Part shown: positions 22,932 through 27,648 of the stretch, piece after piece
Layout: the number at the start of each line of letters is the position of its first letter
Position numbering within the stretch: position 1 is the stretch's first letter
Sequence record: OK272470.1
Reading direction: 5' to 3' (one strand)
Length of the DNA: 64,000 bases
From: Escherichia phage JLBYU50
Position numbers and translations under genes: made by a program
The notes under the pieces: generated by a model
Database searches by the model: none
Told to the model about the DNA's origin: nothing
The model's input: the letters and a program-made list of their open reading frames with translations, nothing else

Positions 22932-23879
22932 TTAGAAACAGTGCAGGAAGTTTCGACCATACTGCAAACCAATAGGAGCAAATGGGATATCATCATCGAA
23001 ATCTTGAACAACAGGTTCTGGTTCTTTCGGTGCTGGCTCTTTCTTCTCTACTTTTTTAGTTTCTTTCTTAACTTCTTGTACTGGGGTAGACATTCCACGG
23101 ATAGCAGCAGCTACTTTATCAGACAAAGCAAGAACTTCACGAGCAGCTTCAATAATCTCTTCTGCCGTTACAGTTTTACCTGTATGATCACGACAAGCGT
23201 TAAGAATTGCGTGTCCAACTGAAGCACCAAGATCATAATCAGTCACATCAACGCCACGATCTTTAGCAATTTCTGCTTTCAGAGTAACAGTTGCAGATTG
23301 TACCACACCAGCCAAGTCGAAAGCATCACCTTTCACACCAGCACGTAGAAGCTCCAGAGCGCCGTTTACAGCGTGTCCTGTTTCAATCCCTACGGTATCA
23401 CGTTTTTTGTAGTTAGGCTTGCTACCTTCGTTATTAGATGGCTTATTTCCACCTTTTGAAGAAGATTGTGCTTGCTGAACACCTTCTGTTGAAAGAATAG
23501 TGATTTTACCTTTAGAGGAATTGTAGTATGTTTTGCCATTCCATTCAGAAGGTTTAACATCCATAGTTAGTTCTACACCTTTTTCGATAGTAACCCACTT
23601 GTCACCATCTTTAACTTGCAGGTTTTCATGTTCTGGATGCAGTTTAACTTCACCTAGGCTAACCCAAACACCTTTATCATCAGCACTAGCACCTTTCTCT
23701 TTAATAAGCAGAGATGCTTTGTGAGTTGATTCAATTTTCTTATCTGGCTGACCTGCAACCTTAATATAAGAGACTTTCATTTCATCAAACTTATCCAGTT
23801 TGACATATTCAACGATACCTTCAGCCCAGAATGCTTCTTTTTTAGTACGACGGTCGATTTCAGAATTAATTACTGGCAT
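22932..23879 (-). CDS. ssb: single-stranded DNA-binding protein-like
   Basis: Gly/Ser/Asn-rich linker then acidic DFDDDIPF motif (bacterial SSB C-terminal tip), here followed by 15 more residues. Confidence 0.6.
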   Translation of the reverse strand: MPVINSEIDRRTKKEAFWAEGIVEYVKLDKFDEMKVSYIKVAGQPDKKIESTHKASLLIKEKGASADDKGVWVSLGEVKLHPEHENLQVKDGDKWVTIEKGVELTMDVKPSEWNGKTYYNSSKGKITILSTEGVQQAQSSSKGGNKPSNNEGSKPNYKKRDTVGIETGHAVNGALELLRAGVKGDAFDLAGVVQSATVTLKAEIAKDRGVDVTDYDLGASVGHAILNACRDHTGKTVTAEEIIEAAREVLALSDKVAAAIRGMSTPVQEVKKETKKVEKKEPAPKEPEPVVQDFDDDIPFAPIGLQYGRNFLHCF

Positions 23880-23895
23880 AAATTCTCCTCTATAA

Positions 23896-24294
23896 TTACA
23901 TTACTTTAACACAAAACTCTCGTAAAAGAGTAGCGTCAGTTTCTTCCAACAGGTATTTACCAAGACCAATACCAAATCCTATTTCACCACTTTCAAAATG
24001 GAGGATTTGTATCTTTTCTCCACCAAGATTAATTACTTTTGCTTTTCCAGGATTATCCAAAACATCTCGTATTGTATCCTGTAGTAGCATAAGCTCACGT
24101 TTTGTGATAGTGGTTTCAGATATCTCTTTGTTTTCTACTCTCACTGTTAAACGATTGTATCCACCAAAGAGACATAGTATTTGAATAAAAAAGGTATTAT
24201 CTTGAGGTTCAACATCTTTTTTGGTTAGCTCAAGACGATTAGTTTCTCTACTGTAGAACGTCTCGACTAAGATTTTAGAACGATTATCTGTCAT
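23896..24294 (-). CDS. hypothetical protein
   Basis: 132-aa ORF, co-oriented, tightly packed. Confidence 0.45.
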   Translation of the reverse strand: MTDNRSKILVETFYSRETNRLELTKKDVEPQDNTFFIQILCLFGGYNRLTVRVENKEISETTITKRELMLLQDTIRDVLDNPGKAKVINLGGEKIQILHFESGEIGFGIGLGKYLLEETDATLLREFCVKVM

Positions 24295-24337
24295 TCAAGT
24301 CCTCATAATAACACATAATTATAATGTTTGTCAACAC

Positions 24338-24931
24338 TTAAATCTTAAATTCTTCGTTGTTAAATGAATCTAGTGTACGTACTTCTGGCTCTTTGGGAAT
24401 GAAAACGTCTTTTACAAAGCGGAACATAGGGAAACGTTCTGCCATTTTACGGACGTGTGCTTCTTTACCTGTGTATCGGTGATTAATAGTACAAATATTA
24501 GTTTTCAGTGCAAATTCAAAATCTGGATGATATACATAATTTTGACCATCCCAGTAACACAAGCAAATAGCTACATCAAAGTTCCATACGATTTCACTGC
24601 GTACACCTTCTTCCATGATCATAAAGTTAAACTTAAGATCTTTATAGTATGCTTCAAATACCCATTTCAAATGTGGTAGTTCGGCATAAGTGTGTTCTGT
24701 TTGCTTAGTAAGTTGTTTAACATTACGTGCACCAACACCCAACATCAAAAATTTCTCTACTAGTACGATTGTATTGTGGTTAGGCATACGCAAGTAAATA
24801 TCAATATCTTGCGCAGGTTTCTCTAATCGCCAATCACGTACAGCGCCGCCAGCTACAATTGCAAACGGATCTACCAGTTGGCACATACGTAACACTTCTA
24901 AAGCTCGTACTTTTTGATCTTCAATATTCAT
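24338..24931 (-). CDS. minimal nucleotidyltransferase (CCA-adding/poly(A) polymerase head-domain-like)
   Basis: AGGAVRD ... DIDIY motifs matching the GGxVRD / DxD catalytic core of class II tRNA nucleotidyltransferases; only 197 aa. Confidence 0.55.
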   Translation of the reverse strand: MNIEDQKVRALEVLRMCQLVDPFAIVAGGAVRDWRLEKPAQDIDIYLRMPNHNTIVLVEKFLMLGVGARNVKQLTKQTEHTYAELPHLKWVFEAYYKDLKFNFMIMEEGVRSEIVWNFDVAICLCYWDGQNYVYHPDFEFALKTNICTINHRYTGKEAHVRKMAERFPMFRFVKDVFIPKEPEVRTLDSFNNEEFKI

Positions 24932-24965
24932 ATTTTCTCCTATCTCTTATGGTCTTTGCGTTATT

Positions 24966-24985
24966 CTAGATGTTCAAACATCTAA
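24966..24985. promoter_or_regulatory. perfect palindrome tagatgtt-caa-aacatcta upstream of nucleotidyltransferase gene
   Basis: 8-bp inverted repeat with 3-nt spacer in the 5' region of the gene starting at 24931. Confidence 0.3.
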
Positions 24986-25003
24986 TTATGAAATGGTTTA
25001 AAA

Positions 25004-25048
25004 GTGTGGAACAACCTTGGCAATAATAGGTTGTCCCACATAAAAACT
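25004..25048 (-). terminator. rho-independent terminator downstream of DNA polymerase gene
   Basis: 11-bp stem (one mismatch) gtggaacaacc/ggttgtcccac followed on - strand by TTTTAAA. Confidence 0.55.
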
Positions 25049-25068: not shown

Positions 25069-27648
25069 TCAGTGACAACTAGCCCATGAGTTACCAACAT
25101 CGTAACCAGCAGTGAGAGGTACATTAAGATTGTAATACTCACCAGCTTTATTAACAGCAATAGATGCTAATTCTCCAGCACGACTGTAGGCTGTAAACCA
25201 ACCACCTTTCGGAGATTCATGTACGTTAGCCCAAATCTTGCCAGTACGTTTCTCTTCCTCTTCTTTCCAGGTATTAACTTTATCCAAACATTCTTTATCA
25301 ATTTTCTTTTGTTCTTCTGGATCATCAACTTGAGTCCAACCTAAAGATTCTTTAGAGAACCATTTAAAATGCACCAGATCACGAGTTACTTCAAGCTGTG
25401 CTTCATCGTGGTATGCAATCATTTGTTGAACGAATGACTTATTTTTCCAGTCATCAACAAAAAAGTCAACAGCTAATCCTTCTTCTTCGATAAGATCATC
25501 GTAGATAACCATTGCTCTTTTTGCACAAATAACACCACCACTCTGGAACAGAGAGTTAAGTATTGCGTGTGCAGATCGTGTAGGTACTTTCCTTCCATCA
25601 ATACCAAGAATGTATTTCTTACCTGTTTTAACCCAAAAATCATGCAGACGTTCTTTAAGAAGAGCAAGAGGTTTTGCAGCTTCCCAGAAAGCATCGTATA
25701 CAAGCTGTCCTGTATACATATCACTACCAATGGTTTTTGCTACTTTTGCAGCTTGAGCACCATAAGTAATACCATACTTAACAGATTTAGCAGGGCTTCG
25801 TTCAAACTTACGACCAATAGTATCAGAAATACGTCGAGCCATCATTGTATGAACATCATTAGGTTTTTCCAACAATAGAGCATTACAATATTCGTGTGGT
25901 TCCTGCTCGTACCGCCAACAGTAGTGTGATTCTATTTTTGCCTCAAGAGAATCAAAGTCATAACCAATTTGGAAGTATTTTGGAACTTCTACACCAAATA
26001 AGTTACGCATTTCATATCCGTACAGAGATGTTACACGTGGGATATTTGCTACTAACCTATGTTTCATACGAGATGTAGCTGCATCACACGTTGCAGCAGG
26101 AGTTGGTATACGACCATCAGCCCTTACTGCTGCCAGATAACCTTTATCGTAATCCTCTTCATCTTCTTCCCAATCAGCACCACCCCCTAAAATAGAGTTC
26201 CTACGGTGTTTATACGTAAGATACTGCACAATCTGCGTAGCATAAGGAAACTTTTCACCTAGTGCTTCCAAGTTAGGACAAATATCTTTCTCTTGCCCTT
26301 TTGTAAAGGAAGGGTTAGTAAGCACTTTAACACCACGACCTTTAGCTTTAGCAATACGATCTCTTAGTTTCCATTCCAAAGTTTCTGGTGTGCACTCCAG
26401 ATGATCACATCTGTCCTGGCAGAAGTTAGATGCTAATGTTTGATCAACGTAGTCACGAATAGCTTTCTCCATTTGTGCTTCATCTTTCTTAATCTTAGTG
26501 CCAGATTTAAGAGTGATATCTTTATCTTTATATTCAGATGGACTCCAACCTAAACCAACTAACCAGTTTTTAATATGTGTAGTGTCATCTAAAGTAGCAG
26601 GTACTGTAGGATCACAAATAGGTTCTTCTGCTGGAATAGGGAGTTTAAACTCTTTACCTAATGCAAATAACCACCAACCATCTTCTTTTTGTACAAGTTC
26701 ACCAGAATGTTTCTCTGCAAACTTTATCATGTTACTTGAAGGTTCACCATTCTTTTTAAACTGTAGTTTAGGTGGAATGAATGATTTCAAATAACCTTTA
26801 GTAGCAGGTTTGGGAGGTAGTACAGGTTCTGCCTCTAAACGACATGCTTCCATTCGAGCATCCAGATCACGAATATTATCTTCTGCTTGTTTCATATTGA
26901 AAGCAAAGCCACGGTGCTCTTGACGTGTAATAATATCAGCTACACGTTGTTCTAAGTTAAATGGTTCAGACCACTTATTATAATCACCCCACTCTTCCAT
27001 CAAATAACGGAACACTGCGGTGTTAGCTTTGTTATCGTAAATACAGTAATACAGCATATCTGCTGCAAATGTTTTAAATCTTTCAGTTTCAGGAATGTTT
27101 TTTCTAAAATCAATTTTAACATCCCCTCCAGCTTTCTTAGATAACTCTGCCAGACTATGACCACCGAAGCGATCAGGGTTTAGTGTCTTACTTAAGATCA
27201 TAGTATCACAAATTTCAATGTTACTATTACCCCAAGTATTGTACTTAATACTATAGTTGAGTTTAAAAAATAATTTAATTGCCAGTAAGTCGAAGTTAAT
27301 GATGTTGTGTCCAACTACTTTGGTAATTTTATAGTTTGAATTACCTTTAAATTTACCTGTTCCATTTACAAAATCAGGAAAATCTTTAAGAGGGAAATGG
27401 GTATATTCTAAATGCTCATATTCCTCCAGTCGGTATTCATACTTTCCGTCAGTCTCAATATACGGACGACCATCGAAAAGATATTTATCACCATCATGGA
27501 AAGCAATAATCTCTCCAGTATCATGACTTTCGCACACAATACAGTGCATTGCAAAACTATCTTTTAAACGATATGGACTTGCCAAGTAATCTACACTTTC
27601 GTCATTAAGCAAGTTGTTACTTTCAATGTCGAAAGTAAAAGCTCCCAT
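25069..27648 (-). CDS. DNA polymerase, family A, with 3'-5' exonuclease domain
   Basis: Exo I FDIESNN; motif A-like GYDFDSLEAKIE; motif B-like KSVKYGITYGAQ; motif C MIAYHDEAQLEV. Confidence 0.8.
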   Translation of the reverse strand: MGAFTFDIESNNLLNDESVDYLASPYRLKDSFAMHCIVCESHDTGEIIAFHDGDKYLFDGRPYIETDGKYEYRLEEYEHLEYTHFPLKDFPDFVNGTGKFKGNSNYKITKVVGHNIINFDLLAIKLFFKLNYSIKYNTWGNSNIEICDTMILSKTLNPDRFGGHSLAELSKKAGGDVKIDFRKNIPETERFKTFAADMLYYCIYDNKANTAVFRYLMEEWGDYNKWSEPFNLEQRVADIITRQEHRGFAFNMKQAEDNIRDLDARMEACRLEAEPVLPPKPATKGYLKSFIPPKLQFKKNGEPSSNMIKFAEKHSGELVQKEDGWWLFALGKEFKLPIPAEEPICDPTVPATLDDTTHIKNWLVGLGWSPSEYKDKDITLKSGTKIKKDEAQMEKAIRDYVDQTLASNFCQDRCDHLECTPETLEWKLRDRIAKAKGRGVKVLTNPSFTKGQEKDICPNLEALGEKFPYATQIVQYLTYKHRRNSILGGGADWEEDEEDYDKGYLAAVRADGRIPTPAATCDAATSRMKHRLVANIPRVTSLYGYEMRNLFGVEVPKYFQIGYDFDSLEAKIESHYCWRYEQEPHEYCNALLLEKPNDVHTMMARRISDTIGRKFERSPAKSVKYGITYGAQAAKVAKTIGSDMYTGQLVYDAFWEAAKPLALLKERLHDFWVKTGKKYILGIDGRKVPTRSAHAILNSLFQSGGVICAKRAMVIYDDLIEEEGLAVDFFVDDWKNKSFVQQMIAYHDEAQLEVTRDLVHFKWFSKESLGWTQVDDPEEQKKIDKECLDKVNTWKEEEEKRTGKIWANVHESPKGGWFTAYSRAGELASIAVNKAGEYYNLNVPLTAGYDVGNSWASCH

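Follow-up and report, generated by a model that had tools for sequence, protein, structure and literature searches.

The gene next to the DNA polymerase gene of Escherichia phage JLBYU50 probably encodes an active, stand-alone, template-independent nucleotidyltransferase, as judged from its sequence and its predicted structure. It is one of a very large family of enzymes of about 190 residues, restricted to phages, which conserve the class II catalytic core without the parts that confer tRNA specificity. Among the relatives whose role has been tested, the closest is the anti-Gabija phage protein Gad2. As to function, we consider it about an even chance that the enzyme is an accessory nucleotidyltransferase of the replication module, probably serving counter-defence, or else the manipulation of host nucleic acids. 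The annotation of the gene as a nucleotidyltransferase was already known, and Pfam already records the link of the family to Gad2; the points of interest here are the abundance of the short form, the loss of the CCA-specific motifs and the association with replication genes. Below, we lay out the gene and its family, the predicted fold, the departure from the CCA-adding enzymes, the relationship to Gad2 and the genomic neighborhoods in which the relatives are found.

The gene and its surroundings

The window analyzed here is a stretch of 64,000 nucleotides from Escherichia phage JLBYU50 (sequence record OK272470.1), in which the 6 kb surrounding the gene match phi92-like phages (genus Justusliebigvirus) at 98.3–99% identity in the best cases. 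The ORF product is approximately 99% identical to phi92 gp158 (YP_009012490), for which the label "nucleotidyltransferase" is already present in RefSeq and in several GenBank records. The gene is real and conserved, and its coding and upstream features are collected in Table 1. The original prediction had described an ORF of 197 aa bearing the motifs AGGAVRD and DIDIY beside a DNA polymerase gene, and this description was borne out in full: the ORF translation reads VAGGAVRD at residues 26–33 and DIDIY at residues 42–46, and the polymerase ORF precedes it on the same strand across a gap of 137 nt. On the 3' side of the nucleotidyltransferase, the same strand encodes the 132-aa protein, the 315-aa protein with its SSB-like tail and a DNA methyltransferase. 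In phages BME3 and Eryne, the gp156 homolog (315 aa) is labeled as binding single-stranded DNA, and the synteny of the gp157 homolog is confined to the rV5/phi92-like phages.

Table 1. Positions of the nucleotidyltransferase gene, its coding features and its immediate surroundings in the window
Feature	Position	Strand	Remarks
315-aa protein	22932..23879	-	phi92 gp156 homolog; acidic C-terminal tail (...DDDIPF)
132-aa protein, downstream neighbor	23896..24294	-	phi92 gp157 homolog; PHROG 16560
Nucleotidyltransferase ORF, 197 aa	24338..24931	-	ATG start; phi92 gp158 homolog; short-form Gad2 family (PF26128, PHROG 1614)
KMAERFP, residues 162–168	24428..24448	-	Conserved helix; occupies the place of LRxxRF after class II motif D
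FDVAIC, residues 118–123	24563..24580	-	Takes the place of class II motif B (RRDxTINA), with neither arginine kept
E93 codon	24653..24655	-	Strand β4 in the model, beside the DxD strand; putative third carboxylate
Motif A, residues 27–46, AGGAVRDWRLEKPAQDIDIY	24794..24853	-	GG helix cap and metal-binding D42 and D44
Ribosome-binding site, AGGAG	24937..24941	-	5 nt before the ATG; from sequence; same site annotated in phi92
Weak sigma-70-like match, TTCATA, 18 nt, TAGAAT	24963..24992	-	9/12; candidate only
Perfect palindrome, TAGATGTT-CA-AACATCTA	24967..24984	.	8-nt arms, 2-nt spacer; 36–53 nt upstream of the ATG
Terminator-like 13-bp hairpin, then UUUU	25005..25040	-	Directly past the polymerase stop codon
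Family-A (T7-like) DNA polymerase, upstream neighbor	25069..27648	-	

Size and conservation of the sequence family

A homolog search with the single sequence returned four proteins, whereas the exhaustive profile search collected 1252 cluster representatives at E ≤ 1e-3, of which 348 lay at E ≤ 1e-10. The members are nearly all stand-alone proteins of 175–220 aa. A nucleotidyltransferase profile match and the presence of the catalytic carboxylates on alignment had been named as checks in the original prediction, and both were obtained. The ORF product matched PHROG 1614 ("nucleotidyltransferase") over residues 7–193 with E=3.1e-34, and when 126 and 111 relatives (21–53% identity) were aligned, D42 and D44 were invariant together with G28 and G29. 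The same two alignments exhibited more than 90% conservation of Q6, A10, R32, D33, W34, Y82 and K162. Since the family profile reaches 348 representatives at the stricter threshold and the two glycines and two aspartates of motif A do not vary, the motif match is more than a chance resemblance.

Further conserved columns were observed downstream of motif A. The E93 column holds Glu in 84, Asp in 19 and Asn in 19 of 145 relatives, so that an acidic residue (E or D) occupies it in about 70%, and on the basis of the model E93 is probably the third catalytic carboxylate. F118 is present in 128 of the 145 relatives and is followed by conserved S121, I122 and C123, and within the helix formed by residues 162–168 F167 and P168 are conserved along with K162. 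This pattern bears on the reading in which the protein would be catalytically dead and would merely keep the fold for a structural or regulatory purpose. Part of the family lacks the third carboxylate and the nucleotide-selecting motifs of class II have been lost, as such a reading would have it, yet the GG and DxD residues are strictly invariant in more than 100 divergent relatives, which is typical of active enzymes, and we regard a dead protein as very improbable.

Predicted fold and catalytic core

The initial AlphaFold model, built on 5 close sequences, reached a pLDDT of 67.5 and produced matches to generic Pol-beta-fold proteins (pol lambda and TUTases). It was replaced by an AlphaFold2 model built on 111 relatives, with a pLDDT of 89 and a pTM of 0.85, the structured part of which stops near residue 173. 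When this model was compared with the PDB using Foldseek, ranks 1–39 were all occupied by class II CCA-, A- and CC-adding enzymes or by E. coli poly(A) polymerase I (E 7e-6 to 1e-3; 146–199 columns), with a TM score of 0.42–0.56 when normalised by the query and of 0.22–0.32 when normalised by the target, the matches spanning roughly one quarter to one third of each target. [quoted passage not shown] The accompanying statement that the 197-aa ORF would be devoid of the body and tail domains also held, both in view of its length and of the order of the model, which extends to about residue 173.

The nucleotidyltransferase core, of the two-metal class II kind, is intact. This core would consist of the class II head domain plus a short following segment, without the domains that hold the tRNA. 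Two Mg2+ ions would be held by D42, D44 and probably E93, and an NTP or dNTP would donate a nucleoside monophosphate to a 3'-OH, with a nucleic-acid end or another hydroxyl-bearing molecule as the possible acceptor.

Departure from the CCA-adding enzymes

In common with the class II enzymes, the phage protein has an N-terminal helix and, after it, GGxVRD and DxD. A relationship in sequence can be detected over this part only, about 55 residues in length. A search against the PolyA_pol family had been suggested as a check, and it came out negative by the threshold of the profile: the Pfam PolyA_pol head domain (PF01743) scored 19.2 bits against a threshold of 23 (E=0.0016), and the same profile matched at E ≤ 0.01 in only 19 of the 126 relatives. 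The NCBIfam CCA equivalog scored 15 bits against a cut-off of 290, and a phmmer search of the ORF protein against the PDB sequences produced nothing significant. The family profile gave marginal matches to CCA enzymes in the PDB, which were limited to motif A (E=8e-4), and its hhalign comparison with E. coli Cca reached a probability of 26% over 54 columns comprising the first helix and motif A only.

In the class II enzymes, motif B (RRD) contacts the ribose and the triphosphate, and motif D (EDxxR) comprises the amino-acid template that selects CTP and ATP. The counterpart of RRD in the phage protein is N117-F118-D119, and in the family column 119 holds P, D or S, with no arginine; the counterpart of EDxxR is K156-E157-A158-H159-V160, for which the family exhibits [DE]-x-[HY]-[IV], again with no arginine. 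Past motif A, this alignment follows the structure and the residue patterns; it was forced against E. coli Cca (residues 118–123 falling on RRDLTIN) and is not significant by itself. The tRNA-binding body and tail of the class II enzymes are absent from the phage protein, which attains half their size or less.

These differences bear on the suggestion, made in the original prediction, that the enzyme would repair tRNA 3' ends. Such a role in repair or maturation would consist in adding A, CA or CCA to nuclease-trimmed or CCA-less tRNAs of the host or the phage. It draws on the fact that the closest solved structures are CCA-adding enzymes and that motif A is retained. In addition, 15–16 tRNA genes lie elsewhere in the genomes of Justusliebigvirus phages (PMC12210895); no tRNA gene was detected in the window or at the right end of the phi92 genome. 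The full-length CCA-adding enzymes of phages are usually interpreted as acting in tRNA repair (PMC7824862), and in two of three metagenomic contigs RtcB, or an RNA ligase together with RlaP, is encoded within approximately 3–5 kb of the relative. Against it stand the length of 197 aa with neither body nor tail for the tRNA, the loss of the motif B arginines and of EDxxR, and the PolyA_pol score under the Pfam threshold. The protein is also slightly acidic (pI 6.3, net charge −2) in a family that is mostly acidic to neutral (median pI 6.3), and E. coli possesses its own Cca. The genomic evidence points the same way: tRNA genes were found within 8 kb at only 7 of 51 related viral loci. A family member also resides beside exonuclease, polymerase and primase-helicase genes in Vibrio phage 1.253.O, whose 47-kb record, deposited as a partial genome, revealed no tRNA gene. 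With the specificity motifs and the tRNA-binding domains missing and tRNA genes seldom nearby, the repair suggestion was not supported; we consider it unlikely and take the protein to be something other than a canonical enzyme of CCA repair.

Homology to the nucleotidyltransferase domain of Gad2

Sequence profiles support homology of the phage protein to the nucleotidyltransferase domain of Gad2. The precomputed match to PF26128 (Gad2) lies at E ≤ 1e-5 for the protein cluster (P0001) that is 99% identical to the ORF product, and most relatives are likewise annotated with PF26128. All of the homologs of about 400 aa that were collected carry PF26128; the Gad2 gene itself is located at 109563–110765 in OQ921347.1. 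Aligned by hhalign with Gad2 alone, the family profile gave a probability of 87% (E=4e-6), which rose to 94.9% (E=4.6e-8) against a profile of 41 Gad2 sequences, over 122 columns corresponding to Gad2 residues 16–140. Shared by Gad2 and the short family, both of which are phage-borne, are the GG and DxD motifs, a conserved Q/N on strand β5 and the pattern F-D-x-[ST]-[IV]-C; the corresponding stretch is TFDFTVC in Gad2 and FDVAIC in the phage protein.

The two forms also differ in several respects. Gad2 exhibits GG[AT]ITS where the short family has GGA[PV]RDW, and the C-terminal part of Gad2 (about 260 residues, 141–400), which contains many invariant positions, has no counterpart in the short form, so that only about 125 residues are common to both. 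Gad2 is found in an anti-defence locus of temperate phages of Firmicutes, whereas the gp158-type gene is found in the replication module of lytic phages. Nucleotidyltransferase domains frequently switch substrate between subfamilies.

[quoted passage not shown] Our literature search found no paper describing the mechanism of Gad2, no activity, substrate or phenotype for gp158 or its short-form relatives, and no biochemistry of a short CCA-like phage nucleotidyltransferase.

Genomic neighborhoods of the relatives

For the contextual analysis, we took 80 IMG/VR loci encoding relatives, called the ORFs, clustered the neighbors within a range of 8 kb, named the cluster representatives by Pfam and collapsed the loci to 49 groups by nucleotidyltransferase identity. 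The most prevalent neighbor was a Toprim/DnaB primase-helicase (33 of 49 groups), followed by a family-A DNA polymerase (23/49). A second polymerase type was detected in 6 groups, which brings the groups with a polymerase to about 29 in all. A 5'-3' exonuclease was found in 12 groups, an ATP-dependent DNA ligase and an SSB-like protein in 7 groups each, and ThyX in 5. Most of these neighbors share the strand of the nucleotidyltransferase gene, in an order that varies and with homing endonucleases often in between. The succession of polymerase, small ORFs, nucleotidyltransferase, 130-aa protein and 300-aa protein is kept in the rV5-like phages and in Pseudomonas phages. The tie to the replication module is therefore genuine and ancient, and it is the tie of an accessory gene, with no fixed place as a core component.

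This location is as compatible with a direct role in DNA metabolism as with counter-defence. In the former case, the enzyme would act at DNA ends during replication or recombination, tailing or capping the 3' ends of intermediates or of genome termini next to the polymerase, the SSB-like protein and the 5'-3' exonuclease. The linkage to primase-helicase, polymerase, exonuclease, ligase and SSB genes, which holds at 24–35% identity, speaks for such a role, and so does the position of the gene between the polymerase gene and the SSB-like gene in the window. On the other hand, the nearest structures all belong to enzymes acting on RNA, the protein is acidic and without a DNA-binding domain, and the gene order is unfixed, while many phages whose replication module is the same lack the gene. 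In Klebsiella phage KP34, for instance, no small nucleotidyltransferase gene is annotated in the stretch examined, from the helicase to the RNA polymerase; such absences, together with the variable order, fit an accessory rather than a core gene. We therefore deem a DNA-end role improbable.

Possible roles in counter-defence and host manipulation

Returning to the accessory enzyme of the replication module, its role would most likely be to shield phage replication from a host defence of the nuclease type, such as Gabija, or alternatively to manipulate host nucleic acids. A more specific form of the first possibility, which we put forward tentatively and hold to be somewhat unlikely as it stands, is that the short Gad2-like enzymes constitute a widespread means of counter-defence in replication modules, nucleotidylating a signal sensed by the defence, such as DNA 3' ends or a component of the nucleotide pool. 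Within the accessory reading, an action against Gabija in particular is doubtful, at a level of confidence close to that of the preceding proposal or slightly under it.

A rival reading is that of a toxic enzyme, which would extend the 3' ends of host tRNA or mRNA for host takeover, in the manner of MenT toxins or poly(A) polymerase, and thereby stop host translation or hasten RNA decay. Expressed by itself, the SPbetaL7 Gad2 is toxic (bioRxiv 10.1101/2023.05.01.538930), as is Gp22 of Klebsiella phage fHe-Kpn01, a CCA-enzyme-like nucleotidyltransferase of 182 aa, in E. coli (PMC7291057), and the extension of tRNA 3' ends by MenT blocks growth (PMC10435456). The MenT/AbiEii toxins are small Pol-beta-fold enzymes that extend tRNA 3' ends, and the toxicity of relatives may be functionally analogous to their action; they nevertheless form a separate family (DUF1814) paired with antitoxins. 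The phage protein gave no match at E ≤ 1 to the defence nucleotidyltransferase profiles of PADLOC-DB (e.g., CD-NTase and AbiE/MenT-type), and the phage itself requires translation, which makes toxic tailing quite improbable.

Small nucleotidyltransferases of similar size occur in other phages as well. Those of Pectobacterium phages PP2 and PP47, Providencia phage PS3 and Caulobacter phage Cd1 (167–215 aa) are alike in size and exhibit the same fold, with BFVD TM scores of 0.55–0.66, and Gp22 of fHe-Kpn01 possibly belongs with these proteins, labeled "poly A polymerase head domain" or "tRNA nucleotidyltransferase". In the T7-like Pectobacterium phages, according to the gene list of a figure legend, a small "tRNA nucleotidyltransferase" follows the primase/helicase and lies just before the DNA polymerase (PMC7693777). 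These proteins, many of which were recovered by the BFVD fold search from Autographiviridae and other phages, appear to comprise a different sequence family, as they were not among the matches listed by tblastn with the JLBYU50 protein.

The short form is small and confidently predicted, and it offers a testable route to the mechanism of Gad2. If the counter-defence reading is true, the smallest active part of Gad2 would be the 190-aa core, which would serve as a convenient model for how nucleotidyl transfer disarms Gabija, and the finding would bear on the choice of therapeutic phages, phi92-like phages being used for their broad host range. Should its substrates be the ends of tRNA or DNA instead, the enzyme would be the smallest working nucleotidyltransferase of the class II type.

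Intergenic elements upstream of the gene

The perfect palindrome noted earlier in the upstream region was recovered with an 8+2+8 architecture, and it is positioned inside the spacer of the weak sigma-70-like match. That match is a candidate only, since such sites are as numerous as chance predicts. By itself the palindrome is also unremarkable, because the window holds 19 perfect 8+8 palindromes, compared with 8.3 ± 3.9 expected from Markov-1 simulations. We considered whether it could be a repeated regulatory motif of the phage and rejected this, as a search of the window that allowed up to 2 mismatches found no second copy. In phi92 and two other contigs the palindrome is unchanged, and in a divergent contig (L013) its inner 5 bp alone are retained, with one compensatory pair. 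The terminator-like hairpin past the polymerase gene was missed by a simple terminator scan because its T-run is just 4 long; its pairing is preserved by all three substitutions found in phi92.

Regulatory signals and neighboring genes in the window

Inspection of the intergenic sequences revealed a hairpin followed by a U-run at the 3' end of the DNA polymerase gene (table below), in which the three substitutions that distinguish phi92 from the window all keep the pairing (3/3; G.U to A-U, U-A to U.G, and C-G to U.G). This preservation suggests that the hairpin acts as a functional terminator or processing hairpin; a simple terminator scan did not pick it up. Additionally, the nucleotidyltransferase stop codon is separated from the gp157-like gene by 43 nt that contain a strong sigma-70-like match, and the downstream genes may thus possess their own host-type promoter. 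Among these, the gp156 homologue ends in the acidic tip typical of single-stranded DNA-binding proteins, and it is labelled SSB in two GenBank records and unknown in the PHROG 4477 entry. The two palindromes built on the arm AAGGAGCC may represent a repeated terminator or regulatory hairpin. They are located downstream of a 143-aa ORF and of a methyltransferase gene.

Features in the window and in loci carrying relatives of the nucleotidyltransferase
Feature	Location	Strand	Details
Palindrome arm AAGGAGCC	window 21722 and 22890		8-nt arm, 4-nt spacer; two copies
gp156 homologue	window 22932-23879	-	315 aa; C-terminus ...DFDDDIPF
Sigma-70-like promoter match	window 24305-24334	-	TTGACA, 18 nt, TATTAT; 11/12; extended TG
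Hairpin	window 25005-25040	-	13 bp + UUUU; 3' of DNA polymerase stop codon
DNA polymerase	window 25069-27648	-	859 aa
Polymerase insertion site	window near 25918-25920	-	from comparison with phi92 polymerase
phi92 DNA polymerase	L001:9070-12384		1104 aa
ICP1 gp223	L004:4959-5378		about 140 aa
Metagenomic contigs with RNA-repair genes	L005:9339-10565; L009:1-3898

An insertion in the phi92 DNA polymerase

The phi92 polymerase owes its greater length to a 245-aa in-frame insertion, which starts directly after ...ESHYC(577) and ends in ...TGN, followed by CWRYEQE; it resembles an intein. The allele in the window is free of this insertion. The polymerases of further relatives (UAB_1, cardinal, and alia) also align in two pieces.

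Architectures and RNA-related neighbors of the family

The relative in Vibrio phage ICP1, gp223, matches only the N-terminal ~126 residues, and in several ICP1 isolates (H52-H60 among the matches) the alignment runs across two ORF annotations, so that the gene may be truncated or split. In a minority of the family, namely the profile-search relatives P0061 (400 aa), P0046, P0059, P0118, and P0021, the domain is C-terminal and preceded by N-terminal extensions of 90-210 residues, the reverse of the order in Gad2, whose domain is N-terminal.

RNA-repair genes were located ~3-5 kb or less from the family member in two of three metagenomic contigs examined, a number too small for an association; one encodes RtcB and the other an RNA ligase, RlaP, and a KTI12/AAA_33 kinase. 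Five viral contigs that are otherwise diverse (L045, L047, L072, L080, and L092) each have a lone tRNA-Arg(tct) gene <8 kb from the family member, and in another locus (L019) an array of 11 tRNA genes starts about 2.6 kb downstream.
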